DNA of 29,141 nt from Dehalococcoidia bacterium CG2_30_46_19 (GCA_001872925.1 MNYD01000069.1:1-29141); one strand, 5' to 3'. Shown: positions 912 through 28,616, counted from the first letter of the stretch. The notes: generated by a model from the sequence alone, not told the origin. Numbers and translations: made by a program.

Positions 912-1885
912 ATTTTTACCTCCTGCCATAGAACATCGTTCATCTCAAACACCGGACCATCACGGCATACCTGTTTTAAGCCATGCTTGGTATTTATAGT
1001 GCAGCTACGACAAGCTCCGATGCCACATCCCATCCTCACCTCTAGGGAAATTTGGCAATTTCTTAGCTTAGATTCTTCGCTTCGCTCAGAATGACAAGTT
1101 AATAATTCCGCCATTGTCTTATACATATCCACAGGTCCACAAGCAAATACCTGGTCTGCCCAATCAAGGAAGTCAGGCAGGATATCGGTTACCATGCCCT
1201 TCCTGCCCAGAGTCCCGTCTTCGGTAACAGGGATGAATTGAACTCCGCTTGGTAAAGACAAGAGATTGCTTTGCTTTTCACCCTCTCCTTTTTCCTCTCC
1301 CTTCGAGGGAGAGGAATTAATGGTGAGGGGCAATGACAAAAAGGGATAAATCTGAGCAGCGGTGCTCGCTCCATGAATTAATGCTACCTGATATTGAGGC
1401 GAAGCATATTGAGCCAGGAAAATAAGCGGAGCAATGCCAATGCCTCCACCCACCAATAGCAGGTTTTTCAAACCAGGCACAATGTTAAATCCCTTACCCA
1501 GTGGTCCGAGGACGTCAATTTTATTGCCCGCCGGCTGCTGTGATAGCCAAAAGGTGCCCTTGCCTACTACCTGAAATAGAAGGGCAATCTCACCCTTACC
1601 AGTTCCTTCGCGGAGTTTACCCTGAGCACGATAAGATTCTTCGCTACGCTCAGAATGACAGCAAGCGAAGGGCTCAGGACTAGCCTCATCTCCCGTCGGG
1701 GGAGAGGACAAGGATGAAACCTGATGCACACTGAAAGGGCGACGCAATACCAATCCTTCACAGCATACCGTAATAAATTGCCCCGGCTGAGCCGAAGAAG
1801 CGATGTCAGGCGCATCAAGCCACATAAGATACACGCCTGGCATGACCTCCACATTAGAAGTTATCGCACACAAAGACTGCCTCAT
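908..1885 (-). CDS. pyrK: Dihydroorotate dehydrogenase electron transfer subunit, carrying three in-frame repeat insertions
   Basis: RRPFS (FAD), GGGIGIAP (NAD), and CGIGACRSC...VCRDGPVF (2Fe-2S). At 325 aa it is about 70 aa longer than the usual ~255 aa, which matches the total length of the inserts. Confidence 0.92.
   Translation of the reverse strand: MRQSLCAITSNVEVMPGVYLMWLDAPDIASSAQPGQFITVCCEGLVLRRPFSVHQVSSLSSPPTGDEASPEPFACCHSERSEESYRAQGKLREGTGKGEIALLFQVVGKGTFWLSQQPAGNKIDVLGPLGKGFNIVPGLKNLLLVGGGIGIAPLIFLAQYASPQYQVALIHGASTAAQIYPFLSLPLTINSSPSKGEEKGEGEKQSNLLSLPSGVQFIPVTEDGTLGRKGMVTDILPDFLDWADQVFACGPVDMYKTMAELLTCHSERSEESKLRNCQISLEVRMGCGIGACRSCTINTKHGLKQVCRDGPVFEMNDVLWQEVKI
1070..1096 (-). 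repeat. Family A core (27 bp) in frame in pyrK, encodes CHSERSEES
   Basis: Minus strand TGTCATTCTGAGCGAAGCGAAGAATCT. One mismatch each to 1634-1660 and 28555-28581. Confidence 0.95.
1262..1338 (-). repeat. Family A shell with a nested family B hairpin, in frame in pyrK (LSLPLTINSSPSKGEEKGEGEKQSNL)
   Basis: TGTCATTGC-[CCCTCACC..TTCCTCTCCCT-cga-AGGGAGAGGAA..GGAGAGGGTGA]-AAAGCAAAGCAATCTC. Perfect 11-bp stem at 1292-1316. Confidence 0.85.
1606..1710 (-). repeat. Composite B hairpin + A core + tail, in frame in pyrK (SSPPTGDEASPEPFACCHSERSEESYRAQGKLRE)
   Basis: CCTCTCCCCCGACGGGAGATGAGG, then TGTCATTCTGAGCGTAGCGAAGAATCT (1634-1660), then TGCTCAGGGTAAACTCCGCGAAG, which resembles the tail at 28586-28609. 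Confidence 0.9.
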
Positions 1886-1888
1886 GCT

Positions 1889-2020
1889 AAATCCTAAATT
1901 CGAATTCCTAAACTCTAAACAAATTCAAAATTTCAATGCTCTAAATTCAAAACCACTTCGGATCATTTGTATTTTGGGTTTTGATATTGTTTGGAATTTC
2001 GTGCTTTGGATTTCGGATTT
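1889..2020. repeat. Family C AT-rich imperfect inverted repeat built from AAATCC(G/T)AAAT-like units; overlaps the carB 3' end and abuts the pyrK start
   Basis: Left arm AAATCCTAAATTCGAATTCCTAAACTCTAAACAAATTCAAAAT. Right arm, reverse-complemented: AAATCCGAAATCCAAAGCACGAAATTCCAAACAATATCAAAAC. Confidence 0.7.
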
Positions 2021-5000
2021 CCCTTTAAGTATTCCCTCAGCGGCTGAACGCTAAAACTTTGACCGACACCACCCATCGCCTCCACAACTACACGGGCAGT
2101 ATCCAGCGAGGTAAAGCACGGTATCCTCTTTTCTACAGCAGCACGCCGGATATTAAATCCATCCTTCAAGGGAAGCCGACCTCCAGCGACAGTGTTAATA
2201 ACCCCAGCCACAGAATTATCCTGAATAACGTCAATAACGTTGGGATGCCCTTCACTTAATTTTTTGGTCACCATTTTTACCGGGAGACCCGCTGCTTCAA
2301 TCATAGCTGCAGTCCCTTCGGTGGCATAAAGTCCATATTGAAGCGAGTGCAACTTCTTGATTAAAGGCAGTGATTCAGCTTTATCCCTATCAGCAACGCT
2401 TAGCAACATCCCTCCCTTCTCAGGCAACATCAACCCGGCAGCCAAGAGTGCCTTGACCAAGGCAGCATCAAAGGTATAATCAACACCCATCACTTCACCG
2501 GTAGATTTCATCTCAGGTCCAAGATAATTATCCACCCCAATCAGCTTGGACATAGAGAAAACAGGAGCTTTTATACCCACTAACTTTTGCTTCTTCCCCA
2601 ACCCCCCGTTATAACCTTGCTCAGCAAGACTGATACCAGCCATCACTTTGACGGCAATTCGCACCAAGGGAACACCAGTTACCTTGGAGATAAAGGGCAC
2701 AGTTCTGCTAGCCCGGGGATTTACCTCAAAGACATATACTGAAGAACGCCCATTTTCCCTCATTATGAGCATCTGAACGTTCATCAAGCCTTTAACTTGC
2801 AAAGCAAGACCAATTCTGGTGGTGTAATCCACCATAGTGTTTACTTCCTCATCGGTTAAATTGACGCCGGGATAGATAGCCAAGGCATCACCACTATGCA
2901 CGCCAGCTCGCTCAATATGCTCCATTATGCCCGGGATAAGCACTTCCTTCCCATCACTAACAGCATCTACCTCAACCTCCTTGCCCTGCAAGTATTTATC
3001 GATAAGGACAGGATGCTGGCTATTGAGCTCTAAGGCCTCGGTTAGATAGCGAATCAGCTCAGTCTCATTATGCACGATTTCCATAGCTCGGCCACCGAGG
3101 ACATAGCTGGGGCGAATCAACAACGGATAACCCAAGGACCTAGCTACATTCAGTGCTTCTTCAATTGATGACACGCCAGCTCCCGGTGGCTGAGGAATAC
3201 CCAACATATCTAGAAAGTCTTCAAAACGACGACGGTCCTCAGCTATATCTATTGCTTCAGCACCGGAGCCCAGTATTGCTAAATTGCTGCGTGCCAATGG
3301 CTCAACCATGTTGATGGCTGTCTGACCGCCAAACTGAACGATGGAGGGTAGGACAGACTCACCTTCGTTTTCAACTATGTCTCGAATGCTTTCCTCATCC
3401 AGAGCTTCAAAGTAAAGACGGGTGCTGGTATCGAAATCGGTGGAAACTGTCTCTGGATTAGAATTAACCATGATGCTCTTTATACCCGCTTCCTGAAGCG
3501 CCCAGGCAGAGTGAACGCAGCAGTAATCAAATTCAATCCCCTGCCCGATCCGTATCGGGCCACTTCCAATAACTAAAGCTTTCCTGCCTTCCAGAGGCTC
3601 AGCTTCGTTTTCCTTCTCATAGGTGCTGTAGAAATAAGGAGTTTCAGCATCAAATTCGCCAGCGCAGGTATCCACCATCTTATATACCGGGCGGATATGC
3701 CATTCATGACGGGCTTGCCTCACCTGCTCAGGCAATCTATCAGCCAATGTGCCAACTTGCTCATCACTGAAACCAAGCCGCTTTGCCTCCCAGAGAAGCT
3801 CGGGAGTCAAAGGCTCAGAAAGAAGCCGCTTTTCCATGTCAACGATATTGTTTAGCTTATAGATAAACCAGGGGTCTACTCCAGTGCGCTGGGAAAGCTC
3901 TTCAGGTATAGCTTCCCTTCTCAGCGCTGCTATGATTGCCCAAATTCTCAAGTCATTGGGATGAAGTGGATAGGAATCAAGCCCTTTCCCCTGCTGCCAG
4001 CTGGAATCTTCCCAGAGAAGGGCCCTCTTACCAAACTCCAGAGAGCGCACGGCCTTCTGCAGGGCAGCTTCAAAGCATCTTCCAATAGCCATCACTTCGC
4101 CCGTGGCTTTCATCTGAGTGCCAACCTCTCTATCACCTGATGCAAATTTATCGAAAGGCCATCTTGGAATTTTAACCACGCAGTAATCGAGAGCAGGCTC
4201 AAAGGATGCCAACGTCTTGCCAGTAACCTTATTGGGTATTTCATCGAGCCTTCTTCCTATAGCTATTTTGGCCGCCACACGGGCAATGGGATAGCCAGTG
4301 GCTTTGCTGGCAAGGGCTGAGCTACGACTGACACGCGGGTTGACTTCAATCACATAATACTGACTTTTTTCTACCTTTATTTGGTCTGGAGCCCATTTTT
4401 CAGCAACTACAGGGTGAGGAGTAAGGGCAAATTGTATGTTACAGCCACCCTCAACACCCAAAGCCCGGATGATGTTAATGCTCGCCGACCTGAGCATCTG
4501 GTATTCCTTGTCAGTTAGCGTCTGGCTGGGAGCTACCACAATGCTGTCGCCAGTGTGCACCCCCATGGGGTCAATGTTTTCCATATTACAGATGGTAATA
4601 CAGTTATCGGCGGCATCACGCATAACTTCATATTCAATTTCCTTCCAGCCAAGGAGACATTGCTCCACCAGAACTTCATGACTCATGCTATTCTCCAGGC
4701 CATTGGCGACTACTTTCTCAAGCTTTCCCATGGTGTAAGCAACACCGCCCCCGGTGCCACCCAGAGTATAAGAAGGACGAACAATTAAGGGCAAGCCGAT
4801 GGATTCCGTCAGCTCCCTGGCCTCTTTTACCGATTTAACCGTGGCGCTCTGGGGCACGGGCTCACCAATATCAATAAGAAGCTGTTTAAATAACGACCTC
4901 TCCTCAGCCTTCTTTATCGTTTCCACTGGTGTCCCCAAAAGCCTTACTTTATATTTATCAAGCACACCAGCATCGGCCAACTCTACCGCAAGGTTAAGCC

Positions 5001-5274
5001 CTGTCTGCCCACCAATGGTGGGCAGCAATCCATCAGGACGCTCTCTCTCAATTACCCGGGCTAAGACTTCAACAGTAAGCGGCTCAATATAGACGATGTC
5101 GGCGATACCTTCGTCGGTCATAATGGTCGCCGGGTTTGAGTTCACCAGAACCGTGGTCACGCCTTCCTCCCGCAGCGCCCGGCATGCCTGAGTTCCGGAA
5201 TAATCGAACTCCGCCGCCTGCCCGATTATTATCGGACCCGAGCCAATGACCAGGACTTTAGATGGTTTGGACAC
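1963..5274 (-). CDS. carB: Carbamoyl-phosphate synthase large subunit
   Basis: [22 protein letters not shown], two ATP-grasp halves ([10 protein letters not shown] and [12 protein letters not shown]) and a C-terminal MGS domain. GTG start. Confidence 0.98.
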
Positions 5275-5283
5275 TCAATCTCC

Positions 5284-6102
5284 CTAACCCTTTACAGCCT
5301 TTATCAACCCAAAGGCGCGAAGTTCCTTAGCAACTTTAATGAAAGCTTTATCCATATTCTCTTCGGTGAAACGCTCCCAGACTTTCTCGTCAATGTTTGT
5401 AGGAAATTTAGTCTCCTCTTGTAACAAATAAATCATTTTGTCAGGAAGAATTTCTTGAGCTCTGCCAATTTCATTAAGAATATTGCCATGCGGAATAAAC
5501 TCACCTGTTTGACCATCAACGTCACCTTTGGTTGCCAGGATTATTGTGCAATCGCATTGCTTTAGATAATGCTCCACATTTTTATCTTTCGACCTTCCTT
5601 CGCTAGGTTGCTCCTCCACAATTATAGGAGTGATACCTAGCGCATTGAGAAAATTCACAAGTTTCTTGCGGGCAGGACTTTCCCCACCATGAGCAATAAA
5701 GGCTTTAGGTGGCTCTGTATCAATACCAGGTGGCTTTCCTATTACATTCCCTTGTTTATCTCGTATACCCTTATCAATATCGTCTTTTAATTTTCCAATG
5801 GTTCTGCTTGTTGCTTGTAAACAGTTATCAAGTGCACTCACAACGAGAGTGTTTTTTTCGAAATTAAAAGCCCAATTCCAAACATCCTGTAGGCCGGCGC
5901 TCGTTTTGATTGTCTCTAAACCTGTATATTCTTTAACTAATTGAGTATACTTTCCTGCGCTGATGCTGATTTCCTCGTATATTAATTCAAAATCCGCAAG
6001 TTCTTCTTTTGTTAATCCCTTATGTTGATTTATCTGTTTTGTTCGATAGGCGAGATATTGCATGAGTTTATCTCTAAAATCTTTTAATTCATCTACAATC
6101 AT
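5284..6102 (-). CDS. Predicted nucleotide-binding TIR-like domain protein (CAP12/Pycsar-effector-like TIR at the C-terminus, unknown helical N-terminus)
   Basis: C-terminal pattern KAFIAHG...LGITPIIVEEQPSEGRS...IILAT..D...HGNILNEIG...FPTN. Strong RBS GAAGGAGG. AT-rich relative to the flanking car genes. Confidence 0.75.
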   Translation of the reverse strand: MIVDELKDFRDKLMQYLAYRTKQINQHKGLTKEELADFELIYEEISISAGKYTQLVKEYTGLETIKTSAGLQDVWNWAFNFEKNTLVVSALDNCLQATSRTIGKLKDDIDKGIRDKQGNVIGKPPGIDTEPPKAFIAHGGESPARKKLVNFLNALGITPIIVEEQPSEGRSKDKNVEHYLKQCDCTIILATKGDVDGQTGEFIPHGNILNEIGRAQEILPDKMIYLLQEETKFPTNIDEKVWERFTEENMDKAFIKVAKELRAFGLIKAVKG

Positions 6103-6134
6103 CTCGCTTTACCTCCTTCAATATCAGCCACCTA

Positions 6135-6212
6135 CCTCACCCCCTTAGTCCCTCTCTCCTTCACAAGAGAGGGGAGGTTTGGAAAGAGGGATTCCGCCCC
6201 TCTAAAACTCCC
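6135..6212. repeat. Family B repeat, partial copy between carA and the TIR-like gene
   Basis: CCTCACCCCCTTAGTCCCTCTCTCCTTCACAAGAGAGGGGAG..AGAGGGATTCCGCCCCTCT..ACTCC aligns with the reverse complement of about 107-190. Confidence 0.8.
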
Positions 6213-6223
6213 TATATTCATCT

Positions 6224-7369
6224 CTACTTTCCCTTCACCATCTCCAGAAATCTCTCAAACAAATACCTGTTGTCCAACGGCCCGGGGGAAGCTTCGGAGT
6301 GGTATTGAATTGATAGTATGGGCAAGTCCCGGTGGCGGAGACCCTCCACGGTGCCATCGTTTAGGTTTATGTGGCTTACCTCAAGCCCTCCCTTTAAGGT
6401 ATCGGCATCTATGGCATAGCCATGATTCTGAGCAGTGATATAAACCCTGCCAGTTGCTAAATCCCGCACTGGATGGTTACCACCACGGTGCCCGAACTTT
6501 AGCTTAAATGTCTTTGCCCCTAAGGCTCTGCCGATAAGCTGATGTCCCAGGCATATTCCCATAATCGGTTTTTTGCCTATGAGCTTTTTCACCGTCTCCG
6601 TTATATCATCAAGAAGAGCAGGATCGCCGGGACCGGGGGAAAGGAGGATGCCATCGGGATTCATCTCTAATACATCCTCTGCTGAGGTAGTGCAAGGGAT
6701 AGCGGTCACCTGGCAACCAAATTGGCTTAAGATACGCAATATGTTGTATTTCAGGCCATAGTCAATAACCACAATTCGCAGATTGCTTCGCTCCGCTCGC
6801 AATGACAAAAAGGAAGCGGGCAATGACAGAAAAGGCAGGTTTGCAGTGACAGATGTATCGGATTGCCATTCATAGGGCTTCTCAGTGCTGACCTGGTGAA
6901 CAAAATCGGTAGAGTCATACCGGGGTAAATTCTTCAGCTCCTTTAATGCTTCTTCAGCAGTCATCTCTGAGGTAATAATCCCCATCATAGTTCCCAGCGA
7001 ACGTATATGGCGAGTTAAGGCACGAGTATCTATCCCGCTGATTCCTGGAATGCCGTTATCCTGCAGAAACTTATGTAAGGTAATTGTGCTCTGCCAATGG
7101 CTTGGACGAGAGCAATACTCCCGAACGGCAAATCCCCTAACCTGAATTTGCTTCGATTCGAAATCGGATTCATTGATGCCATAGTTCCCAATCATGGGAT
7201 AAGTAGGCACTAGAATTTGTCCGTCATAAGATGGGTCAGTGAGCATCTCCTGATAGCCGGTCATGCTGGTATTGAAAACGACCTCGCCATAGGCATTATC
7301 CTCAGCACCGAAGGCATCCCCTTCGTAAACCGAGCCATCCTCAAGAACTAAAATTGCCTTCTTAGCCAT
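6224..7369 (-). CDS. carA: Carbamoyl-phosphate synthase small subunit, with an in-frame repeat insertion
   Basis: GEVVFNTSMTGYQE, LSPGPGDP, GICLGHQ (catalytic Cys) and QYHSEASPGP. The likely start is ATG 7369 (MAKKAILVLEDG); the ORF track extends to GTG 7378. Confidence 0.97.
   Translation of the reverse strand: MAKKAILVLEDGSVYEGDAFGAEDNAYGEVVFNTSMTGYQEMLTDPSYDGQILVPTYPMIGNYGINESDFESKQIQVRGFAVREYCSRPSHWQSTITLHKFLQDNGIPGISGIDTRALTRHIRSLGTMMGIITSEMTAEEALKELKNLPRYDSTDFVHQVSTEKPYEWQSDTSVTANLPFLSLPASFLSLRAERSNLRIVVIDYGLKYNILRILSQFGCQVTAIPCTTSAEDVLEMNPDGILLSPGPGDPALLDDITETVKKLIGKKPIMGICLGHQLIGRALGAKTFKLKFGHRGGNHPVRDLATGRVYITAQNHGYAIDADTLKGGLEVSHINLNDGTVEGLRHRDLPILSIQYHSEASPGPLDNRYLFERFLEMVKGK
6780..6850 (-). 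repeat. Family A stacked repeat in frame in carA (VTANLPFLSLPASFLSLRAERSNL)
   Basis: GTCACTGC..TGTCATTGCCC..TGTCATTGCGAGCGGAGCGAAGCAATCT. The 28-bp core at 6780-6807 is identical to 7905-7932. Confidence 0.92.
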
Positions 7370-7370
7370 C

Positions 7371-7423
7371 ACCCTCACCTTAATCCTCTCCCGTCAAGGG
7401 AGAGGAAATTTGGGCATAATGAC
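7371..7423 (-). repeat. A-prefix plus family B hairpin forming the pyrC C-terminus and stop and the carA translation initiation region
   Basis: GTCATTATGCCCAAATT-TCCTCTCCC-ttgac-GGGAGAGGA-TTAAGGTGAGGGT. Closely similar to the intergenic copy at 28487-28526. Confidence 0.85.
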
Positions 7424-8780
7424 TTCCTAAGAAATCATCCATATAAACTACCTCGCCATCGACTATGGTCGCCATTACCTTGCCTTTAAACTTACAGCCA
7501 TCGAAAGGAGTATTCTTCCCTTTAGAAGCAAATTTGCTGCTGTCCACAACCCATTCCCGGTCTGGGTCAAATATAGTGATATTAGCCGGAGAGCCTACCT
7601 TCAACATGCCTAATTCGCCGCCTTTGCCAACTATCCTTGCTGGCTCACAGGTTAGCTTGGAAATCAAGGTAACTAAACCTATCTCCCCTTTATGAACCAG
7701 GCCCATAAGAGCGCCAAAAGCGGTCTCAAACCCGCTAATGCCGAAGGCAGCCATTTCCAGGCCACAATCCTTATCCGCCAGAGTATGCGGGGCATGGTCA
7801 GTGGCAATAGCATCAAGCACCCCATTTTTTAATCCTTCTATCAAGCAAGTTATGTCATCCTCAGTGCGCAAAGGCGGGTTTACCTTGGCATTAGTATCAT
7901 ATTGAGATTGCTTCGCTCCGCTCGCAATGACATTGTTGCCTTTGCCCCAGTCCTTGCCCATTATCCTTTCCTCAGTCAATGTTAAATGGTGAGGAGTAAC
8001 CTCAGCAGTTACCAAAATTCCTTCTTCCTTAGCACGACGTATAAGCTCAACAGAGCCACAAGTACTTACATGGGCAATATGAATCCTGGCATTAGCTAGC
8101 TTCGCCAGAGCCAGGTCACGGGCTACTATCATTTCCTCTGCACTCGCTGGAATTCCCCGAAGGCCCAACTTTGTAGACACCCAACCTTCATTTACAACAC
8201 CACCGTTACTCAGCCTTCTATCCTCACAATGGTCAACAATCGGCAAGCCAAGGGCGCAGCTATACTCAAGAGCACGATGCATAACTTGTGAACTAACCAC
8301 TGGAGCACCATCATCACTGAAAGCAACTACTCCAGCCTCAGCCAGTTCAGCCATATCGCAGACTTCCTTTCCACTTCTCCCTTTAGTGACACAACCTATA
8401 GGAAAGACATGAACAATGCCCTCTTCGGCAGCTTTTTGTTTCACCCACTCCACCATAGCTCGATTATCAATAGGTGGATTTGTGTTTGCCATGCAACAGA
8501 CGGCAACAAAGCCACCCGCAGCGGCTGCCTTTGTCCCTGTAGCGATTGTCTCCTTCTCCTCAAATCCCGGCTCACGAAGATGGCAATGAAGGTCTATGAA
8601 GCCAGGACAAACGGCCCACCCCGTGGCATCGATTACCAGAGGTTGCTTCGCTGCGCTCACAATGACAATTGGTATCCCCTTCCCCAATTGTGTGATTTTG
8701 CCTTCATCAATAACCAAATCGGCAACCTGGTTCATACCCCGGCCAGGGTCAATTAAGTTCCCATTCTTAATCAGTATCAT
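7380..8780 (-). CDS. pyrC: Dihydroorotase (type I, multifunctional-complex type), with repeat insertions
   Basis: PGFIDLHCHLREPG, FSDDG, DHCED, HIAHVS, EVTPHHL, KVNPPLR, ATDHAPH, SKGKNTPF. Confidence 0.96.
   Translation of the reverse strand: MILIKNGNLIDPGRGMNQVADLVIDEGKITQLGKGIPIVIVSAAKQPLVIDATGWAVCPGFIDLHCHLREPGFEEKETIATGTKAAAAGGFVAVCCMANTNPPIDNRAMVEWVKQKAAEEGIVHVFPIGCVTKGRSGKEVCDMAELAEAGVVAFSDDGAPVVSSQVMHRALEYSCALGLPIVDHCEDRRLSNGGVVNEGWVSTKLGLRGIPASAEEMIVARDLALAKLANARIHIAHVSTCGSVELIRRAKEEGILVTAEVTPHHLTLTEERIMGKDWGKGNNVIASGAKQSQYDTNAKVNPPLRTEDDITCLIEGLKNGVLDAIATDHAPHTLADKDCGLEMAAFGISGFETAFGALMGLVHKGEIGLVTLISKLTCEPARIVGKGGELGMLKVGSPANITIFDPDREWVVDSSKFASKGKNTPFDGCKFKGKVMATIVDGEVVYMDDFLGSHYAQISSPLTGED
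7905..7932 (-). repeat. Family A core (28 bp) in frame in pyrC, encodes VIASGAKQS
   Basis: TGTCATTGCGAGCGGAGCGAAGCAATCT. Identical to the carA copy but read in a different frame. Confidence 0.95.
8640..8667 (-). repeat. Family A core (28 bp) in frame in pyrC, encodes VIVSAAKQP
   Basis: TGTCATTGTGAGCGCAGCGAAGCAACCT, three mismatches to 7905-7932. Confidence 0.9.
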
Positions 8781-8784
8781 CTCG

Positions 8785-10244: not shown

Positions 10245-10784
10245 TCACTTCTCAGTTGAATTTGTTATAGCTACCCCATCCTCACCATCTACCTCTTTAA
10301 CATACACCTCGACTTTCTCCGCCCGCGAGGTTGGTATATTCTTGCCTACATAGTCAGCTCGGACAGGAAGCTCACGGTGACCGCGGTCAATAAGAACAGC
10401 CAGTTGTATAGAGCTAGGGCGGCCTAAATCGATAAGCGCATCCATAGCTGCCCGAATGCTTCTTCCGGTATAAAGGACATCGTCTACCAAGACCACTTGT
10501 TTATCAGTTACATCAACGGGAATATTGGTGTGCTTAGCCGGTTTTGACTCCAGGAAAGAAACGTCGTCTCGATAAGAGTTAATATCCAGAACACCAACAG
10601 GAACCCGGACACCTTCAAAACCCTGGATTATATCGGCTAATCGGTGTGCCAACGGCACTCCCCGAGTCCACATGCCCACGATAAGAAGATTTTCAGCACC
10701 CTTATTCTTCTCTACAATCTCATGAGCAACGCGCACCAAAGCCCGCCCTATATCCTCCGAGGTCATGAGGAGCTTTCGCGGCAT
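10245..10784 (-). CDS. pyrR: Pyrimidine attenuation regulator / uracil phosphoribosyltransferase
   Basis: RIAHEI-like [51 protein letters not shown]. The likely start is ATG 10784, just after the leader terminator. Confidence 0.96.
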
Positions 10785-10785
10785 T

Positions 10786-10821
10786 AAAAAAGCCTCCTGC
10801 CACAGAACTGGCAAGAGGCTT
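10786..10821 (-). terminator. Attenuator terminator of the pyr leader
   Basis: AAGCCTCTTGCCA-gttctg-TGGCAGGAGGCTT followed by a U-tract. The pyrR RBS (AGGAGG) lies in the 3' arm. Confidence 0.85.
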
Positions 10822-10856
10822 CATTAGATTTTGCTAACCTTTGCGTTATCAAAACT

Positions 10857-10889
10857 CCCCTTACCAGCCTCTCCGGACTGATTTAAAGG
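10857..10889 (-). promoter_or_regulatory. PyrR-binding loop (anti-antiterminator)
   Basis: CCTTTAAATCAGTCCGGAGAGGCTGGTAAGGGG contains AGUCCGGAGAGGCU, which matches the PyrR consensus ARUCCNGNGAGGYU. Its AGAGGCU can alternatively pair with AGCCUCU in the terminator 5' arm (10814-10820). Confidence 0.88.
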
Positions 10890-10897
10890 TCTATATG

Positions 10898-11002: not shown

Positions 11003-12205
11003 ATGGATTTCCCCTTAATTCCTTCGGGCACAGTTACTTCGGTGCCAGGATTTCTCGCTGGTGCAATCCATGCTGGAATAAAGGAAAAAGACGAACCTGA
11101 CCTCGCCATCCTTTATTCCAAGATGCCCTGTGTTGCTGCTGGCGTTTTCACCACCAACCTGATTAAATCAGCCCCGGTCACCCTATCCCAAAGACACCTA
11201 ACACAAAGAACGGCAAGGGCAATCGTGGTAAATTCAGGCTGTGCCAACGCTTGCCTTGGAGAACAAGGGGCAAAGGATGCTGCAGAAATGGCAAGACTAA
11301 CTGCAGAAAAGTTAGGCATACCTTCCGAGGAAATACTTGTAGCCAGCACGGGCGTGATTGGAAAGCCACTGCCTATGAGCCAGCTCAGAAACGGGTTCCC
11401 GAAAGTAAAGCTCCGTCAAGATGGCGGTCATGAACTAGCCAGAGCAATGATGACCACAGATACTATGCCCAAGGAAATAGCACTTAAAGTTGAGACAAAA
11501 GAAGGTAAGTTTACCCTCGCCGGGGTAGCTAAAGGCGCAGGCATGATACATCCTGAATTAGCCACCTTGCTTTGCTTCATAACCACCGATGCTGCGATAG
11601 ATGCTGATTTCTTGCAACAATCATTAAAGAAAGCGGTTGATGTTTCCTTTAACATGCTCAGCATTGACGGCGAAACCAGTCCTAGCGACTGTGTATTTTT
11701 GTTAGCTAATGGCTTGGCAAGAAATACTGGAATTAGCTTCAATAACGGCGAGGCTTTTCAAAACGCTCTAGGTGAAGTTTGCACTTATTTAGCTAAATCA
11801 ATAGCTCAAGATGGTGAAGGAGCAACCAGGCTCATTGAAGTTACTGTGGAAGGAGCGGTAAATCAAACCGATGCACGCCAGGCAGCCCGGACCATTGTTG
11901 GCGCTCCCCTGGTGAAAACAGCGATACACGGCAGTGACCCTAATTGGGGACGCATTGCTGCTGCCGTGGGGCGAAGCGGAGCAAAGGTGACGGAAGGCAA
12001 ACTGGACATCTATCTGAACGATATATGTGTTATGAAGCAAGGTCGCCCAATACCATTTGACCAAGATGAGTTGCGTGCATCTTTGGCAACAGCTAACAAA
12101 GTGCCTATCAAGGTGTATCTTAACCTAGGCGACGGCAGAGCCACTGCTTGGGGCTGTGACCTATCTGAAGAATATGTTAGGATAAATAGCGAGTATACTA
12201 CTTGA
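11003..12205 (+). CDS. argJ: Bifunctional ornithine acetyltransferase / N-acetylglutamate synthase
   Basis: VNSGCANAC, ASTGVIG, MTTDT, KGAGMIHPELAT (autoproteolytic Thr retained), [33 protein letters not shown]. Confidence 0.97.
   Translation: MDFPLIPSGTVTSVPGFLAGAIHAGIKEKDEPDLAILYSKMPCVAAGVFTTNLIKSAPVTLSQRHLTQRTARAIVVNSGCANACLGEQGAKDAAEMARLTAEKLGIPSEEILVASTGVIGKPLPMSQLRNGFPKVKLRQDGGHELARAMMTTDTMPKEIALKVETKEGKFTLAGVAKGAGMIHPELATLLCFITTDAAIDADFLQQSLKKAVDVSFNMLSIDGETSPSDCVFLLANGLARNTGISFNNGEAFQNALGEVCTYLAKSIAQDGEGATRLIEVTVEGAVNQTDARQAARTIVGAPLVKTAIHGSDPNWGRIAAAVGRSGAKVTEGKLDIYLNDICVMKQGRPIPFDQDELRASLATANKVPIKVYLNLGDGRATAWGCDLSEEYVRINSEYTT
12139..12192 (+). repeat. 54-bp perfect direct repeat, copy 1 (inside the argJ 3' end)
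   Basis: AGCCACTGCTTGGGGCTGTGACCTATCTGAAGAATATGTTAGGATAAATAGCGA, identical to 12730-12783. Confidence 0.97.
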
Positions 12206-12674: not shown

Positions 12675-12796
12675 CCCACGCAAAGCTGCAACATATTCAT
12701 CAAACTAGACCTAGATTTAGAGATAATAAAGCCACTGCTTGGGGCTGTGACCTATCTGAAGAATATGTTAGGATAAATAGCGAATATACAACGTAA
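12675..12796 (+). pseudogene. argJ: Displaced second argJ 3' end (about 40 codons, one -1 frameshift), containing direct repeat copy 2 (12730-12783)
   Basis: Translates as [10 protein letters not shown](G)[24 protein letters not shown] against [36 protein letters not shown] in argJ. Confidence 0.85.
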
Positions 12797-21189: not shown

Positions 21190-21202
21190 GCTTTTTAGCG
21201 AA

Positions 21203-22047: not shown

Positions 22048-22104
22048 AAGATACTCTCCACCTTTCTATCTTACCTTGTATAATGATGTTATCATAATAC
22101 TTAT

Positions 22105-23754
22105 GTGGTAAGCAACGGAAAAATGGAAGGAAATTCAGTTACAGGGCAACGATTCAAAGAGATGTTTGATGCCGGAACTGCCTGGTTGGAAAAGTGTGTT
22201 CCTGAAATCAACGCCATAAACGTCTTTCCTGTCCCTGACGGAGATACCGGGACCAACATGCTGCTTACCATGCATTCTGCCATGGAGGCGGTACATCAAA
22301 ACCATGATGACGATGTTTCAGCGATAGCCGAAACCATTGCTCAGGGTGCACTGATGGGAGCTCGAGGCAACTCAGGCGTGATACTGTCCCAATTCTGGAA
22401 AGGCTTCGCCAAAGGATTAGATGGTAACAAGCAACTTAGCACTAAAGCTTTAGCCAGAGCGCTATCGGAAGCATCGCAAGCTGCCTATGAAGGGCTTGTC
22501 AATCCAGTGGAAGGCACCATGTTAACGGTGCTTTATGATTCAGCCAATGCTGCTAAAGCTGCTGCAAAAGCCAATCCCAGAAACCTAATCAAAACGCTCG
22601 ATACTGCCGTGGAGGCAGCCAAAGGCTCGGTAGCCAACACACCTAACCTGCTACCTGTGTTACGGGAGGCAGGCGTGGTGGATGCCGGTGGTCAGGGTTT
22701 GTATGTTCTCCTCGAGGGCGCACTACTCTACCTTAAAGGCGAAACCGATACGCTAAAGCAGCGAAAACCGCAGTTGATTCCCACAAGCGCACCATTAGCC
22801 TTGGGGATAACTCAGATGCCCGCCGAGGTAGAGGTTCCCTACGGTTATTGCATCAATTTCCTATTGGAAGGGCAAAATCTTAACCCGAAAAAGATCAAGG
22901 AAAACTTGAAAAAGAAGGGACAGTCCCTGGTAATCACCGGTAATAACTCTAAAATTAAAGTCCACCTCCATAGCTTCAAACCTGGCGAGATAATTGACTA
23001 CGCCACAAATCAAGGAGTATTGCACCAAATAAAAATTGATAACATGGATGACCAATATGCCGAGTTCATCAAAATGCAGCGAAAAAGATTGCCCCCGCTA
23101 GATACCGCTATAGTAGCAATTGCTCCTGGTGAAGGTCTTTTCAAAGTATTCAAAAGCCTGGGAGCCACTATCATCATCCCGGGCGGACAAACTATGAATC
23201 CAAGCGTCCGTGAGCTGCTGGAAGCAGTGAATTCAGCTCCATCAAATAATGTTATATTACTGCCCAATAATAAGAACATCATCGTCGCCGCCTTCCAGGT
23301 TCAACCACTAACCTCAAAGAATGTTAAGGTGATACCCACCAAAACCATACCTCAAGGCATCTCTGCTCTGCTCTCCTTTAACTACGATATGAATCTGGAG
23401 AAGAATGCTTCCACTATGGAAGAAGCGATGAAAATGGTGAAATCCATAGAAATCACTAAATCAGTTCGGAAAAGTCAAATCAATGGTATGAACATAAAGA
23501 AGGGAGAATTTATTGCTGTTTTAGATGACAAAGAGCTGCTAGCCAGTGGTAAAAAGGTTAAAGATGTCATTACCAATGCTCTGGACAAAGCAGAGGTTAA
23601 AAATGCTGAACTGGTAAGTATTTACTACGGCGCTGAAACTAAACCCGATGAAGCTGAGAAAATAGCCAGCGAAATTCAAGATGAATTTTCAGTTGAAGTT
23701 GAAACAGTTCAAGGTGGACAACCCTACTATAACTATATAATTTCGCTGGAATAA
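22105..23754 (+). CDS. DAK2-domain fusion protein (YloV / fatty acid kinase FakA-like)
   Basis: INAINVFPVPDGDTGTNM, GARGNSGVILSQ, EGTMLTV, VVDAGGQG, GGQTMNPS, GGQPYYNYIISLE. Confidence 0.93.
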   Translation: MVSNGKMEGNSVTGQRFKEMFDAGTAWLEKCVPEINAINVFPVPDGDTGTNMLLTMHSAMEAVHQNHDDDVSAIAETIAQGALMGARGNSGVILSQFWKGFAKGLDGNKQLSTKALARALSEASQAAYEGLVNPVEGTMLTVLYDSANAAKAAAKANPRNLIKTLDTAVEAAKGSVANTPNLLPVLREAGVVDAGGQGLYVLLEGALLYLKGETDTLKQRKPQLIPTSAPLALGITQMPAEVEVPYGYCINFLLEGQNLNPKKIKENLKKKGQSLVITGNNSKIKVHLHSFKPGEIIDYATNQGVLHQIKIDNMDDQYAEFIKMQRKRLPPLDTAIVAIAPGEGLFKVFKSLGATIIIPGGQTMNPSVRELLEAVNSAPSNNVILLPNNKNIIVAAFQVQPLTSKNVKVIPTKTIPQGISALLSFNYDMNLEKNASTMEEAMKMVKSIEITKSVRKSQINGMNIKKGEFIAVLDDKELLASGKKVKDVITNALDKAEVKNAELVSIYYGAETKPDEAEKIASEIQDEFSVEVETVQGGQPYYNYIISLE

Positions 23755-23774
23755 AAATTTGGAGGTTATTTATT

Positions 23775-23902
23775 TGTCATTGCGAGGAGCGTAGCGGTTG
23801 CGAGTCGTAGCCGAAGCAAACTGGAGCATGAGATTCCTCGTTTCACTCGGAACAAGCTCCGCAATCTGGAAAGGAGATTGCCACGCTTCGCTCGCAATGA
23901 CA
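23775..23902. mobile_element. Family A MITE-like element, two-armed copy (128 bp) with 12-bp perfect terminal inverted repeats
   Basis: TGTCATTGCGAG ... CTCGCAATGACA, with an internal reversed half-copy AGATTCCTCGTTTCACTCGGAAC (23831-23853). No target-site duplication is evident. Confidence 0.85.
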
Positions 23903-24285
23903 GAGGGGAGTTGCTAAACAATAAAATTTTTGAAGTATGCCATGGTTATCGAGGAGGACGCATCGGCAAGACACAAGCTTTCCTGGGTGATTTACTCAAG
24001 GTAAATCCTATTCTGGGAATAAAGAATGGAGACACCTTTCCTATTGCCCGAGTTCGTAGTCGAGCACAAGCTATAGACTTTCTGGTAAATTTCGCTAAAA
24101 GCTTCAAAAAGGTAGAGGCTTTGGCTATTGAAGACGTTACTACCTCAAACGAGCTGGAAATACTGGGCCAGCGTCTCCAGGGACTGGTGCCCCAAGAACG
24201 TTTCTATCGCTCAAAGGTAAGCCCGGTAGTTGGCACACATGTTGGTCCCCATGTCTTAAGTGTCTCTGCCCTAGAAGGAGAATAA
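23878..24285 (+). pseudogene. degV: DegV (FakB-like) C-terminal fragment; the 5' part is missing and replaced by repeat DNA
   Basis: GGRIGK...LLKVNPIL.IK.G...P.ARVRS and SPVVGTHVGP. Only about 110 of the usual ~280 aa are present. The apparent TTG start lies inside the repeat. Confidence 0.8.
23903..23922. repeat. Family B terminus remnant
   Basis: GTTGCTAAACAAT (23910-23922) is a 13-bp exact match to the reverse complement of 54-66, and is preceded by a G-run as in that copy. Confidence 0.55.
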
Positions 24286-24288
24286 GGT

Positions 24289-26781
24289 TTGGGACAGCCC
24301 CCCAAAGAAACGAGCATAAACTCACTCCGAAGAGTCCTGGAATTAGAATGTAACAAGAGATATTCCGATAAAGCGGTAATCGGAGGATTGGATAAGTTCC
24401 TCCGAAACCAAGAAGGCAAAGTCTTACAGGGCATAGATAACCGAGAACTTTTAATGAGCTTTAATAATCTGGGGTTAGCTAAATCTAATTACAGTTCCTG
24501 GGATGTAAACAAACGTGAACAGTGGATAGCAACTATACTGGAATGGATAGGCAAAGTAGAAGAAGCAAGGGAGAAGAAAAAGTTAACCACACCAGCACTG
24601 GGTAGACCCCCCACGGTTGGTAAAACACGCCAGATCGAGAAAGTATCTCCCGAACTGGATTCACCAATAACCTTAATCAGAGGTATCACACCTAACACAG
24701 CCACTAAATTTGCCAAGCTTGGCGTAAAAACCCTGTATGATTTACTTTACTTCCTTCCTCGTCGTTATATCGATTACAGCCAGAGAAAAGCCATCGCTGA
24801 ACTCGAAGAAGGTAAAGAACAAACCATTATAGCAACGATATGGCAATCCAAAGTGGTCACTCTGGGTAATCGACAGGGCACAGAGACAATTGTCGGCGAT
24901 GAAACGGGTAATATCCGGGTAGTGTGGTTTAATCAACCTTATCTGGCAAAGAACTTTCGTACTAATGCCAGGATAGCAATTAGCGGGATAGTTAGCTCAT
25001 TTAAGGGACAACGGGTTTTTGAGTCTCCAGAATGGGAACTCATCCAGACCAAGGAACTAATCCATACCGCTCGATTAGTCCCCATTTACCCGTTAACTTC
25101 CGGTTTATATCCTCGCCAGGTAAGGAAATGGACAAAGGAGGCTGTAGATAGTTGGGCATGGCAGCTTGTTGAGTTCCTACCCTCAGAAATAAAGAAACGA
25201 TGTCAACTTCTAGATTTGTCTCAAGCAATTACCCAGGCTCATTACCCTGACAATCACCGAGTAGCAGAGGAAGCAAGAAAACGTTTAGCCTTTGATGAAT
25301 TGTTTCTACTTCAATTGGGTCTACTGGCAAGAAAGCAAAATTGGCAGGAAGGTCAGCCCGGCAATGCTTTTAATATCAACCAAGTGCTACTTAAAAAGTT
25401 CTTAAGTTATCTACCATTTACTTTAACGCATGCCCAACAGCGAGTGCTCAGCGAGGTCTTGCTTGACCTCAAACAACCAAAAGCTATGTCGCGGCTTCTC
25501 CAAGGAGAAGTAGGCAGTGGCAAAACTATAATTGCTACTCTAGCGTTACTAATTGCCGGCGATAATGGATACCAAGGGGCACTCATGGCCCCTACCGAAG
25601 TCCTCGCAGAGCAACATTTCGACAACATTTGTAACTATTTAGCCAAAGCTAGCACACAACCCCAGCCATCATTACAACCCCGTATTAAATACGGGGACAG
25701 CAATGTTCGCTGCTATGGTGGTATTCTTTCGCAACCAATCACCATTGCCTTGCTTATCGGCAGCCTTAGCGAAAGTGAAAAGGAAGAGCTGCATAATAAA
25801 ATCAGACAGCACAAAATTGACATTGTCATCGGCACTCACGCTCTCATCCAGGAAGAGGTAGAATTCCCCAAGCTAGGACTAGCGGTGATAGATGAACAAC
25901 AACGCTTCGGCGTTTTGCAACGCTCAGCATTGCGGCAAAAAGGATTCAACCCACATATGCTAGTTATGACCGCTACACCCATCCCGAGAACCATGGCATT
26001 GACTATTTATGGAGACCTTGACCTTTCTATTATTGACGAATTGCCTCCGGGACGGGCAATCGCTAAAACAAAATGGCTTGAACCACAATACCGAGGAAAG
26101 GCTTATTCCTTCATCCACCGCCAAATAAATAAAGGAAAACAAGCTTTTATCATTTACCCCTTGATTGAAGAATCGGAAGTAGTGGAAGCAAAAGCAGCTA
26201 CCACAGGATATGAGTGGCTAAGCAAGGAGGTTTTTCCGAGCTTCAAACTGGGGCTGTTGCATGGGCGAATGCCTGCTGCCGAGAAAGAACAAGTGATGCG
26301 ACGCTTCCGCAATAGAGAACTTGATATCCTGGTATCAACCTCAGTGGTTGAAGTTGGCATTGATGTGCCTAATGCTAACGTCATATTAATAGAAGGTGCC
26401 GACCGATTCGGACTGTCCCAGCTTCACCAATTTCGGGGGAGAGTAGGTCGTGATAAAGAACAAGGCTACTGCCTGCTCATCCCTGAAAGAAGCTCACCTG
26501 AAGCAAAAGAGCGCCTTGAGTTAATGGAAAAAATTCAAGATGGCTTCAAACTAGCCGAGGAAGACCTGAAGCTGCGAGGGCCAGGAGAATTCTTTGGCAC
26601 ACAACAAAGTGGCTTGCCTGAACTCAAAATAGCTAGTATAACAAACATGCAACTTCTGGAGACAGCGCGGCAGGAAGCAACCTCCTTGTTCAAAAATAAT
26701 CCCGATGCAGTGAAAGATAGAGACTCTCCCCTTGGTGAGAAATTAAGCCGAGTATGGCAAGGAAATATTGAATGGAGCTAA
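24289..26781 (+). CDS. recG: ATP-dependent DNA helicase RecG
   Basis: RLAFDELF, LLQGEVGSGKT, MAPTEVLAEQH, DEQQRFG, MTATPIPRT, QLHQFRGRVGR, DLKLRGPGE. Confidence 0.97.
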   Translation: MGQPPKETSINSLRRVLELECNKRYSDKAVIGGLDKFLRNQEGKVLQGIDNRELLMSFNNLGLAKSNYSSWDVNKREQWIATILEWIGKVEEAREKKKLTTPALGRPPTVGKTRQIEKVSPELDSPITLIRGITPNTATKFAKLGVKTLYDLLYFLPRRYIDYSQRKAIAELEEGKEQTIIATIWQSKVVTLGNRQGTETIVGDETGNIRVVWFNQPYLAKNFRTNARIAISGIVSSFKGQRVFESPEWELIQTKELIHTARLVPIYPLTSGLYPRQVRKWTKEAVDSWAWQLVEFLPSEIKKRCQLLDLSQAITQAHYPDNHRVAEEARKRLAFDELFLLQLGLLARKQNWQEGQPGNAFNINQVLLKKFLSYLPFTLTHAQQRVLSEVLLDLKQPKAMSRLLQGEVGSGKTIIATLALLIAGDNGYQGALMAPTEVLAEQHFDNICNYLAKASTQPQPSLQPRIKYGDSNVRCYGGILSQPITIALLIGSLSESEKEELHNKIRQHKIDIVIGTHALIQEEVEFPKLGLAVIDEQQRFGVLQRSALRQKGFNPHMLVMTATPIPRTMALTIYGDLDLSIIDELPPGRAIAKTKWLEPQYRGKAYSFIHRQINKGKQAFIIYPLIEESEVVEAKAATTGYEWLSKEVFPSFKLGLLHGRMPAAEKEQVMRRFRNRELDILVSTSVVEVGIDVPNANVILIEGADRFGLSQLHQFRGRVGRDKEQGYCLLIPERSSPEAKERLELMEKIQDGFKLAEEDLKLRGPGEFFGTQQSGLPELKIASITNMQLLETARQEATSLFKNNPDAVKDRDSPLGEKLSRVWQGNIEWS
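25667..25706 (+). repeat. Degenerate family A shell around a perfect palindrome, in frame in recG (PSLQPRIKYGDSNV)
   Basis: CATCATTACAA-[CCCCGTATT-a-AATACGGGG]-ACAGCAATGT. The SL...SN frame is the same as in the carA and pyrK inserts. It lies in an extra segment between helicase motifs Ia and Ib. Confidence 0.6.
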
Positions 26782-26782
26782 T

Positions 26783-28441
26783 ATGTTTAAACAAAAGATA
26801 GCCGATTGTCTACAAGAAGCAGTAGCCAAAGCCCAACAGGAAGGTAGTCTTGCTCCGGGAACACTACCTGAGATAACTATAGAGCATCCTCAAAACCCTT
26901 CCCATGGGGATTTTGCTTCAAACCTTCCCTTAAAGCTAGCTCGGATAACCAGGATGCCCCCTTTAGTCATTGCTGAGAAAATATTGGAGAAAATGTCACT
27001 CCCTTCCGAGATTGACCATGCCACTACAGCCCCGCCAGGATTCATTAACTTTACCTTGCGGAATGAATGGCTTATCAAGCAAGTAGAAGCTATACTCGCT
27101 GCCGCCGACTCATACGGAAATCTCACCTTAGGCACAGGTAAAAACATCCAAATCGAGTTTGTTAGCGTCAATCCCACAGGACCTCTTCATGTAGGTCATG
27201 GGCGCGGTGCTGTTCTAGGCAGCACCTTAGCTAATGTCCTTTCTACCGCTGGTTATCTTGTGGAAAAGGAGTATTACTTAAACGACATTGGCAATCAGAT
27301 AGAACTCTTCAGTCATTCACTCTATGTTCGTTATCTGCAATACTTCGGTAAAAAGATTGATATGCCTCCTGATGGCTATTATGGCAATTATATGATTGAC
27401 ATGGCAAAGGAAATCGCCGAAGAACATGGAGATAAGTTTCTCAATATGCCCCAGAAAGAAGCAATCGAGGCGATCACCGAAATCGGGCTTAACAAGATAA
27501 TAAATAACATCAAAGGGGACCTTCATTTATTAAACGTGGAGTTCGATGAGTGGTTTAGCGAAAAAAGCCTCTACGAGGGTGAGCAATACAACAAAGCCAT
27601 GGCATTACTGGAAAGTGGAAACTATGTGGCTAAAAAGGAAAATGCCGTTTGGTTTGAATCAAGCCTACTAGGCGAAGATAAAGATAATGTGCTAGTCAGA
27701 AGTAACGGCTCGCCCACCTATTTTGCCTCCGATATCGCCTATCATTACAACAAGTTCATGGAGCGGAATTTTGACACCGTGATTGACATCTGGGGAGCTG
27801 ACCATCAGGGACATGTCCCCCGGATGAAAGCAGTAATTAAAGCCATCGGGCAAGACCCGGAGCGACTCAAGGTGATAATATGTCAGCTGGTTACCCTTCA
27901 TCGCGGAAAAGAAATGCTCAAGATATCCAAGCGAAGTGGTGACCTCATCACCCTGCGTGAGGTGATCGACGAAGTAGGAACAGATGCTTGCCGCTTCTTT
28001 TTCTTATCCCGTTCCGCCGATAGCCAAATGGACTTCGACCTGGAGTTAGCTAAAAAACAGTCAGCAGATAATCCTGTTTACTATGTCCAATATGCTCATG
28101 CTCGAATTGCCAGCATCATTCGGCTCGCTCGGGAACGAGAGATAGACTACAGCCAGGGAGATGTCTCCCTGCTCTCCACTGAGCCAGAGCTAACCTTGAT
28201 TCGCCATTTAATAATGCTCCCCGAGATAGTAGAAAGAGTAGCTATCAACCTTGAGCCCCATCACCTACCCTATTACGCTCAAGCACTGGCTACCGTGTTC
28301 CACAGCTTCTATAAGCAGTGCCGGGTTGTCTCCCAGGATGAGGCATTGACCCAAGCCCGGCTTAAGCTGGTCAGGGCAACTCAAATCGTCCTAGCTAAGG
28401 TGCTCTACCTTATGGGTATGACCACCCCTGAAAGAATGTAA
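26783..28441 (+). CDS. argS: Arginine--tRNA ligase
   Basis: EFVSVNPTGPLHVGHGR (HIGH), WGADHQGH, KISKRSG (KMSKS-like), NPVYYVQYAHAR. ATG 26783 follows the recG stop. Confidence 0.98.
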   Translation: MFKQKIADCLQEAVAKAQQEGSLAPGTLPEITIEHPQNPSHGDFASNLPLKLARITRMPPLVIAEKILEKMSLPSEIDHATTAPPGFINFTLRNEWLIKQVEAILAAADSYGNLTLGTGKNIQIEFVSVNPTGPLHVGHGRGAVLGSTLANVLSTAGYLVEKEYYLNDIGNQIELFSHSLYVRYLQYFGKKIDMPPDGYYGNYMIDMAKEIAEEHGDKFLNMPQKEAIEAITEIGLNKIINNIKGDLHLLNVEFDEWFSEKSLYEGEQYNKAMALLESGNYVAKKENAVWFESSLLGEDKDNVLVRSNGSPTYFASDIAYHYNKFMERNFDTVIDIWGADHQGHVPRMKAVIKAIGQDPERLKVIICQLVTLHRGKEMLKISKRSGDLITLREVIDEVGTDACRFFFLSRSADSQMDFDLELAKKQSADNPVYYVQYAHARIASIIRLAREREIDYSQGDVSLLSTEPELTLIRHLIMLPEIVERVAINLEPHHLPYYAQALATVFHSFYKQCRVVSQDEALTQARLKLVRATQIVLAKVLYLMGMTTPERM

Positions 28442-28486
28442 CCAGCTGAACCATCCCTACCATACAGATAGCAATCCAGTCAAAAG

Positions 28487-28526
28487 TCCCCTCTCCCTTG
28501 ACAGGAGAGAGCTAGGGTGAGGGTGA
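28487..28526 (+). repeat. Family B hairpin repeat
   Basis: TCCCCTCTCCCTTGACAGGAGAGAGCTAGGGTGAGGGTGA, similar to the minus strand of 7370-7406. Confidence 0.8.
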
Positions 28527-28531
28527 AAGAG

Positions 28532-28616
28532 GTCATTGCGAGCGCTCCGCCTCCTGTCATTCTGAGCGGAGCGAAGAATCTCAAGATGCTCAGGACAGGC
28601 TCCGCGAAGCAATCTC
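28532..28616 (+). repeat. Family A nested composite (outer GTCATTGCGAGCG...CGCGAAGCAATCTC, inner 27-bp core at 28555-28581)
   Basis: Inner core TGTCATTCTGAGCGGAGCGAAGAATCT, with tail TGCTCAGGACAGGCTCCGCGAAG. Confidence 0.92.

Follow-up and report, generated by a model that had tools for sequence, protein, structure and literature searches.

A DNA mini-hairpin with a GNA triloop as the probable conserved unit of a widespread family of miniature repeats

Why should a short repeat hold on to the outer two bases of a three-base loop while the stems around that loop change in matched pairs? The question is raised by a 29,141-nucleotide stretch of DNA from Dehalococcoidia bacterium CG2_30_46_19 (GCA_001872925.1 MNYD01000069.1:1-29141), here called the window, which is an entire contig of a 1.23-Mb assembly (G000; 88% complete). 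The window carries copies of a repeat that we call family A, read in an initial annotation as a conserved GCGNAGC mini-hairpin that is selected as a structure of single-stranded DNA (ssDNA) and recognized by an ssDNA-acting enzyme such as an HUH or REP-associated tyrosine transposase (RAYT; REP, repetitive extragenic palindromic). We orient the repeat so that TGTCATT comes first and call this strand the GNA strand. The unit is 27–30 nt long and consists of TGTC, ATTNN, GA, GC-GNA-GC, GA, N'N'AAT and CYC, one base being added after the 3' GA step in the ATTGC class. Folded with ViennaRNA (both strands, DNA and RNA parameters), it is predicted to form an outer stem of 5 bp, an internal loop of 2x2 or 2x3, an inner stem of 2 bp and a triloop. 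We argue, at a probability of roughly 60%, that this DNA mini-hairpin fold is the selected or propagated unit of non-autonomous mobile repeats, acted on by a factor other than a RAYT.

The repeat is well supported in the window and beyond it. Every family A position given in the annotation, with its GCGAAGC, GCGTAGC, GCGGAGC or GCGCAGC centre, was recovered, as were the GTGAAAC variant with its TTCC/GGAA outer stem and the one deviant copy with GCAAAGC. In the window we count 29 GCGNAGC sites, where shuffles give 11.0 +/- 3.0, and 13 TGTCATT sites, where they give 4.0 +/- 2.1. Genome-wide, nhmmer (E<0.01) finds 101 copies; a second count gives 146 when only TGTCATT and complementary ATTNN/NNAAT arms are required, and 82 of these have a GNA loop. 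With the outer shell held fixed and the inner 11–12 positions free, N has an entropy of 1.27–1.34 bits, and the GA steps, the stem bases and the G and A of the loop have 0.2–0.5 bits. A pattern leaving all three loop bases free, run on five distant genomes, gives GNA in 595 of 672 copies (88.5%); among the matches listed, the non-GNA triloops are mostly ANA. Tabulated in these two ways, the loop is as the annotation had it, free at N and conserved at G and A.

The stems were tested against shuffled arm pairs. The outer variable pairs, of four types (CT/AG, CC/GG, GC/GC and TC/GA), are complementary in 91 of 95 copies from the genome itself (shuffle mean 51.6, maximum 69) and in 106 of 114 copies from across phyla (mean 34, maximum 49), far above the shuffled level in both sets, and the covariation of the outer stem claimed from the window is thereby borne out. 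For the inner stem, sites of the form GA-XY-GNA-X'Y'-GA have both pairs Watson–Crick at 130 of 878 (shuffle mean 48, maximum 66), the 2-bp stems being GC/GC (47), GT/AC (24), AC/GT (15) and AT/AT (9). Exchanges of the inner stem, with GNA and GA kept, are seen even within individual subfamilies, as in AC/GT versus AT/AT, GT/AC versus AC/GT, or GT-GAA-AC versus AT-GGA-AT. The conserved features that are not Watson–Crick are all G.A, namely the GNA loop and the tandem GA steps that flank it, and the Watson–Crick stems co-vary around them. On this larger set of copies, then, the loop G and A are not as free as N, and the stem substitutions are compensatory.

The same arrangement of parts is found in units of very different make-up. 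The inner part is modular, with variants such as GCC-GAA-GGC, GA-GC-GNNA-GC-GA and GGCAC-N3-4-GTGCC, and both a GNNA-loop variant and a CCGAAGG-type variant (GCCGAAGGC) occur in family A; hairpin tips are swapped while the shell TGTCATTGC...GCAATCTC stays constant. Further variants are multi-tier forms with a GA step on both sides of every Watson–Crick segment, for example GA-CCCT-GA-CTCT-GA-GT-GTA-AC-GA-AGAG-GA-AGGG-GA, and on three contigs of the window's genome (C43, C88 and C129) an ATTCT shell surrounds three Watson–Crick segments split by tandem GA steps. The multi-tier hairpins follow a regular grammar, (GA-stem)n-GNA-(stem-GA)n. Many full units have upstream of them a half unit of roughly 21 nt, made up of TGTCATTGC and a run of pyrimidines, and units nest within one another, as at 28532–28616 and in the nested shells at sites in pyrK and pyrC.

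Matched arms and a constant loop could also arise with no selection on the fold at all, if palindromic master copies spread by copy-and-paste or gene conversion, template switching matched the arms and the GNA was simply inherited. Founder effects of this kind would suit the lineage-specific loop base N, which gives GAA in the Nitrospirales, GCA in a Dehalococcoidia chromosome (G044; OZ242191.1) and in a 100% complete genome of the window's class with 80 copies (G096), and GGA and GCA in Mucilaginibacter. They would also suit doublets whose arms match perfectly, loop included, the replacement of whole tips or subfamilies rather than their mutation at orthologous sites, and the decay of some in-gene copies. 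We nevertheless consider such an origin unlikely. Template switching would make the G.A steps Watson–Crick, yet it is these steps, together with the G and A of the loop, that vary least; four inner stems, and shells that differ in sequence, share one GA-stem-GNA grammar; the loop-closing pair is biased, being 5'-pyrimidine...purine-3' at 108 of the 130 paired sites and purine–pyrimidine at 22; and in two genomes, G044 and G096, copy orientation goes with the skew strand.

The conserved fold differs between the strands, and the question becomes whether it works in DNA or in RNA. The hairpins d(GCGNAGC) and d(GCGNNAGC) combine exceptional stability with resistance to nucleases, and their RNA counterparts are much weaker (PMC13037366; PMC3201870). 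Predicted DNA folding energies are -1.9 kcal/mol for the top strand and -1.7 for its complement; nearest-neighbour models have no mini-hairpin terms, and these energies are therefore not evidence either way. As folding shows no strand difference, the stability argument rests on the published measurements (PMC13037366). Among tetraloops of the window's genome, GNYA (18) outnumbers GNRA (10), and both triloops and tetraloops of the GNYA kind are characteristic of DNA rather than RNA (PMC13037366).

A hairpin working in RNA, as a transcript stabilizer, a terminator-like stop or a protein-binding site of the sort proposed for REP sequences in mRNA, strikes us as quite improbable. Copies within open reading frames (ORFs) of the window's genome do lie sense far more often than antisense (25 versus 6), Nitrospirales copies lean the same way (40 to 29), tandem G.A pairs and G..A-closed loops are stable in RNA too, and with RNA parameters the top strand comes out ahead by about 1.5 kcal/mol. 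Against these stand the intergenic copies of the window's genome, which have no sense bias (20 between antisense genes, 12 between sense genes), and the copies of G096, where 9 sampled sites are sense and 13 antisense to the genes while all 22 follow the GC skew. The triloops and GNYA tetraloops themselves are not favoured by RNA, and Rfam gave no match over any window copy at E<=1 and none in 18 cross-phylum loci at gathering score. As for the bias inside ORFs, the encoded peptides may well account for it: the sense frames encode peptides rich in Ser, Glu, Arg and Lys and the antisense frames peptides rich in Phe, Leu, Cys and Met. Stop codons were considered as its cause and cannot account for it, and a filter at the protein level would thus be the simplest reading.

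Replication, rather than transcription, is where a strand preference appears. On the G044 chromosome the TGTCATT strand is the locally C-rich strand at 33 of 36 independent sites (p = 2e-7), local exceptions included, and copy orientation flips with the chromosome half. G096 shows long runs of the same orientation, with 59 like neighbours and 12 switches in a hand count from positions, and each of the 22 sampled sites is on the C-rich strand. In G044 the G-rich strand carries both rpoB and the 16S rRNA gene; on the usual rule this makes the C-rich strand the lagging one. The placement of these two genes also fits the skew-based direction of replication as an observation of its own; an oddity of the same chromosome is that dnaA stands at about 1.35 Mb (G044:C1) at a plus-to-minus switch of GC skew, which is terminus-like and seemingly far from the origin. 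Since the preference is strong in G044 and G096 and absent from the Nitrospirales chromosome (G043), it is limited to certain lineages. Taken together, copy orientation and independence of transcription point to ssDNA at replication and not to RNA. Of the annotation's proposal of selection on an ssDNA structure, the strand-specific fold thus holds and DNA is the likelier medium, whereas the enzyme it named has not been borne out.

Many copies in the window's genome sit inside genes: 31 of the 101 lie within ORFs, and about two thirds are intergenic. In pyrK, carA and pyrC the inserts are in frame but use three different frames, the peptides CHSERSEES, VIVSAAKQP and SLRAERSNL being three readings of the family A unit. 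The loop sites in these genes are insertion hot spots, and orthologues from the same genus and family have different modules at the same positions, and a few have empty sites. Five pyrK genes of one genus have inserts at the same three sites, with a constant shell and differing inner modules. For pyrC, some genera have empty sites and others have units with a common 3' end, GCAATCTCAAT, and different tips; the N-terminal site holds 30 nt in the window's genome and 15 nt in a genome of the same genus, and in an old copy in G012 the tip has decayed but the outer stem is still paired, an A-T having become C-G. At the pyrC and pyrK sites no target-site duplication is visible. That the unit is kept for its peptide, as a protein module, is barely credible to us: many copies are indeed translated in frame in the three enzymes, but all three frames are in use, and most copies in this genome are intergenic, as is the unit in other phyla.

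What we call family A is the local version of a family of miniature hairpin repeats with a very wide distribution. The pattern TGTCATTNNGAGCGNAGCG, searched in one genome per species over 596 Gb with about 280 matches expected by chance, led to at least 120 loci in Nitrospirota, Acidobacteriota, Chloroflexota/Dehalococcoidia, Bacteroidota, Planctomycetota, Verrucomicrobiota, Alpha-, Beta-, Gamma- and Deltaproteobacteria, candidate phyla radiation groups, Omnitrophica, Clostridia and one Nanoarchaeota bin. The 3' arm, which the pattern does not demand, is present in 107 of the 135 cross-phylum matches listed. Single genomes can be rich in copies, with 99 in a Mucilaginibacter isolate, 184 in a Bradyrhizobium isolate, 86 on the Nitrospirales chromosome, 48 on the Dehalococcoidia chromosome and 206 in an Acidobacteriota genome, each with 0 for the reversed-pattern control. 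Nearer to the window, 32 of 41 close relatives carry the family A pattern, and of 301 genomes in the phylum, 77 have the exact pattern, copy numbers ranging from 0 to 319 even inside one family. A literature search found no paper describing the repeat or its peptides.

The arrangement of the copies suggests movement. Bacteroidales and Acidobacteriota have units paired as perfect inverted doublets, roughly 95 nt long, those in L072, L074 and L080 reaching -37 to -40 kcal/mol, and the distant high-copy genomes hold many +/- copy pairs 55–75 nt apart; the window itself has no inverted doublets. Tandem arrays comprise five copies at an exact 100-nt spacing (G044:C1:106688-107102) and three at a 26-nt spacing (G252:C5:208619-208689). 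Plasmids of Calothrix, Planktothrix, Oscillatoria, Hymenobacter, Novosphingobium and Granulicella also carry copies. A 5.6-kb scaffold from human faeces labelled 'Bacteriophage sp.' (MT838150.1; L258) contains a degenerate doublet with a TAA loop at 2597–2690; the label is unverified and the doublet lies between ordinary-looking ORFs, and we do not count it as evidence for a phage vehicle.

What moves the repeat is not, by all signs, the enzyme that the annotation suggested. A REP- or REPIN-like system mobilized by a RAYT (HUH Y1) or another HUH enzyme would be in keeping with short hairpins that occur as singlets and inverted doublets, and the replication-related orientation bias in two genomes recalls IS200/IS605. 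The Y1 transposase profile PF01797, which includes RAYTs, is however missing from high-copy carriers: it was not found in the window's 88% complete genome, in G096, or in three of five distant high-copy genomes, the Bradyrhizobium isolate and the two complete chromosomes with 86 and 48 copies. Seven of the 41 relatives have it and 34 lack it, with no evident link to copy number, and where Y1 genes exist, none of 29 adjoins a repeat: the first set gave a copy within 1.5 kb at 0 of 18 loci, and further Y1 loci an adjacent copy at 0 of 11, with two stray copies about 1.3–1.5 kb off. No gene family recurs beside the copies in 120 cross-phylum loci, where the only clusters are short-chain dehydrogenases and response regulators. 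REP-RAYT pairs differ between species, quite unlike the near-identical sequence of family A across phyla. We hold such a system to be very unlikely, and the annotation's claim of a RAYT fails. An autonomous element was considered as well and rejected, as distant inverted copies in the acidobacterial genome enclose ordinary genes and no transposase.

Our preferred explanation, with the DNA mini-hairpin as the unit, runs as follows. The unit consists of the outer 5-bp stem, tandem G.A steps, an inner stem of 2–3 bp closed by C-G or T-A and a GNA, sometimes GNNA, loop, and forms a DNA-type mini-hairpin on one strand only. The selected feature would be the fold in ssDNA, exposed at replication or extruded as a cruciform. 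The units probably behave as non-autonomous mobile DNA, judging from the patchy bursts of 0 to more than 300 copies, the mixture of singlets, doublets and arrays, the nesting and the exchange of tips. In this small genome, many copies have stayed, in frame, in surface loops of enzymes, where the sense orientation, with its hydrophilic peptides, would be filtered for. The replication bias could have arisen in either of two ways: the orientation placing the hyper-stable strand on the exposed lagging-strand template may be lost, or the element may enter via the nascent lagging strand. The second option could be taken further, to a new kind of mobile DNA without a dedicated transposase, in which nuclease-resistant mini-hairpin ssDNA is taken into the nascent lagging strand much like the oligonucleotides of recombineering. 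We rate this idea as decidedly improbable; such uptake would explain why many phyla have a 27-nt sequence in common, why no gene is linked to it and why the GNA strand is on the lagging-strand sequence in G044 and G096.

A number of observations weigh against the mini-hairpin fold as the selected unit. About 10% of triloops are ANA, and in the GGCAC...GTGCC subfamily the loops are not G..A. Copies often differ in that a whole tip or subfamily has been replaced, so that the independent events are fewer than the counts, and much of the covariation could derive from a few founder subfamilies. Orthologous in-gene copies decay (G012, G046), and the calculated energies are marginal, with z near 0 and the two DNA strands 0.2 kcal/mol apart. 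As to replication, GC skew in the window's own genome tracks the coding strand (r = 0.84), and the direction of replication is therefore unreadable there; on the Nitrospirales chromosome, orientation is unlinked to skew (33 versus 36). Read by the usual GC-skew convention, the GNA strand has the sequence of the lagging strand and not that of its exposed template. The 4-kb windows of G044 that contain elements have skews up to 0.27, versus about 0.07 in element-free windows of the same chromosome half, and the link of skew to orientation may be partly local, with elements possibly lying in unusually skewed stretches. Finally, the search turned up no target-site duplication, no clean pair of empty and filled sites and no enzyme.

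The copies in the window are collected in Table 1 together with the genes that contain them. Family B, a second group of hairpins there, has a GAA loop at 120–134, as the annotation stated; this is the sole GNA loop among the family B hairpins read, the rest having other loops, and as a single case it does not make family B a GNA-loop family. Upstream of the repeat-bearing pyr operon we note a PyrR binding site (10784–10893, minus strand; RF00515, 60.5 bits, above the gathering score). Elsewhere, a 63-nt direct repeat, 97% identical (12139–12201 and 12730–12792), flanks a short gene that follows a 400-aa ORF (11003–12205).

Table 1. Repeat units and host genes in the window (coordinates from the first base of the window)
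Feature	Coordinates	Strand	Description
Family B central hairpin	120..134	+	AGGGGT-GAA-ACCCCT
Two-tier variant	271..306	-	ATTCT-GA-GG-AA-GC-AAA-GC-GA-CC-GA-AGAAT; loop G changed to A, hence GCAAAGC
pyrK	908..1885	-	Gene with in-frame inserts
Family A unit	1070..1096	-	ATTCT/AGAAT stem, GA steps; GCGAAGC tip 1079-1085; in frame in pyrK as CHSERSEES
Family A unit	1634..1660	-	GCGTAGC tip 1643-1649; in frame in pyrK; part of a 73-nt composite matching 28540-28612
carA	6224..7378	-	Gene with in-frame inserts
Family A unit	6781..6807	-	ATTGC/GCAAT stem; GCGGAGC tip 6790-6796; in frame in carA, SLRAERSNL; two half units of about 21 nt upstream, TGTCATT at 6822-6828
pyrC	7380..8780	-	Gene with in-frame inserts
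Family A unit	7906..7932	-	GCGGAGC tip 7915-7921; in frame in pyrC as VIASGAKQS; site filled in several genera, empty in others
Family A unit	8641..8667	-	ATTGT/GCAAC stem; GCGCAGC tip 8650-8656; in frame, close to the pyrC N-terminus
Composite unit	23775..23819	+	ATTGC shell with two mini-hairpin modules, one being GCGTAGC 23789-23795
Related unit	23831..23857	-	TTCC-GA-GT-GAA-AC-GA-GGAA; repeat with at least 10 copies, another of which has AT-GGA-AT in place of GT-GAA-AC
Family A unit, GTG subfamily	23876..23902	-	ATTGC-GA-GCGAAGC-GTG-GCAAT; GCGAAGC 23885-23891; intergenic
Nested composite	28532..28616	+	Outer ATTGC...GCAATCTC shell around a full ATTCT unit 28555-28581 (GCGGAGC 28566-28572); also encloses a CCTGTC..CTGAGC / GCTCAG..ACAGG inverted repeat

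If the mini-hairpin reading is right, what a repeat family conserves as its unit appears to be a non-B DNA fold rather than a protein or an RNA, and a GNA triloop and sheared G.A steps that stay fixed while the stems co-vary would make a clean natural case of it. The family is nearly unchanged in many phyla without a known enzyme, and it would link the physical chemistry of mini-hairpins to genome evolution and the asymmetry of the replication strands. For annotation, it accounts for thousands of odd peptides in metagenomic proteins (CHSERSEES, VIASEAKQS) and for insertions in housekeeping enzymes of small genomes, and the cultured carriers Mucilaginibacter and Bradyrhizobium open family A to experiment.

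Several known systems resemble family A in part. The Rickettsia palindromic elements that Ogata and colleagues are said to have described in 2000 are reportedly some 100–150 bp long, found in Rickettsia and relatives and inserted in frame in housekeeping genes at surface loops. Family A shares with them the in-frame insertion in conserved genes whose orthologues include empty sites, and differs in size (27–36 nt) and in having hosts in many phyla. IS200/IS605 elements reportedly transpose as single strands, with copy orientation tied to the direction of replication, according to an account attributed to Ton-Hoang and colleagues in 2010. The tie to the replication strand recurs in family A in G044 and G096, not in G043; family A differs in having no TnpA, in being only 27 nt long and, by the usual skew rule, in carrying its stable strand on the lagging-strand sequence, the opposite of IS608. 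Miniature inverted-repeat transposable elements are called to mind by the doublets, which resemble terminal inverted repeats; no duplication is visible at pyrC or pyrK, and no transposase stands between distant inverted copies or beside copies.

REP sequences, BIMEs and REPINs (PMC3116915) have in common with family A the short hairpins, the singlets and inverted doublets, the high copy number and a possible action in ssDNA, and the doublets of L072, L074 and L080 likewise form a long hairpin. Family A lacks a RAYT and a GTAG head, the RAYT genes that exist have no adjoining repeat, its sequence is near-uniform across phyla, and it is often found inside genes where REP sequences are extragenic. 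Similar by description are the small dispersed repeats SDR4-6 of the Nostocaceae (Elhai et al. 2008, Genome Res 18:1484; cited in PMC3116915 and PMC5861425), which are reported to be mobile-looking nested hairpin repeats of 21–27 nt with no known transposase, described only in a few cyanobacteria. Family A is similar in size and nesting, and plasmids of Calothrix and Planktothrix do carry family A-like copies. Another close likeness is to the DNA mini-hairpin of Hirao and colleagues (PMC13037366), with the same heptamer, a free N, a C-G closing pair (PMC3201870) and a G.A pair in the loop; at the level of sequence, family A agrees with it in the heptamer, the closing pair, the fixed G and A and the free N. 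The known natural mini-hairpins are single sites at priming origins of phages and plasmids and in N4 promoters (PMC13037366), whereas in family A the mini-hairpin is the core of a dispersed repeat of hundreds of copies, set between tandem GA steps and an outer stem.

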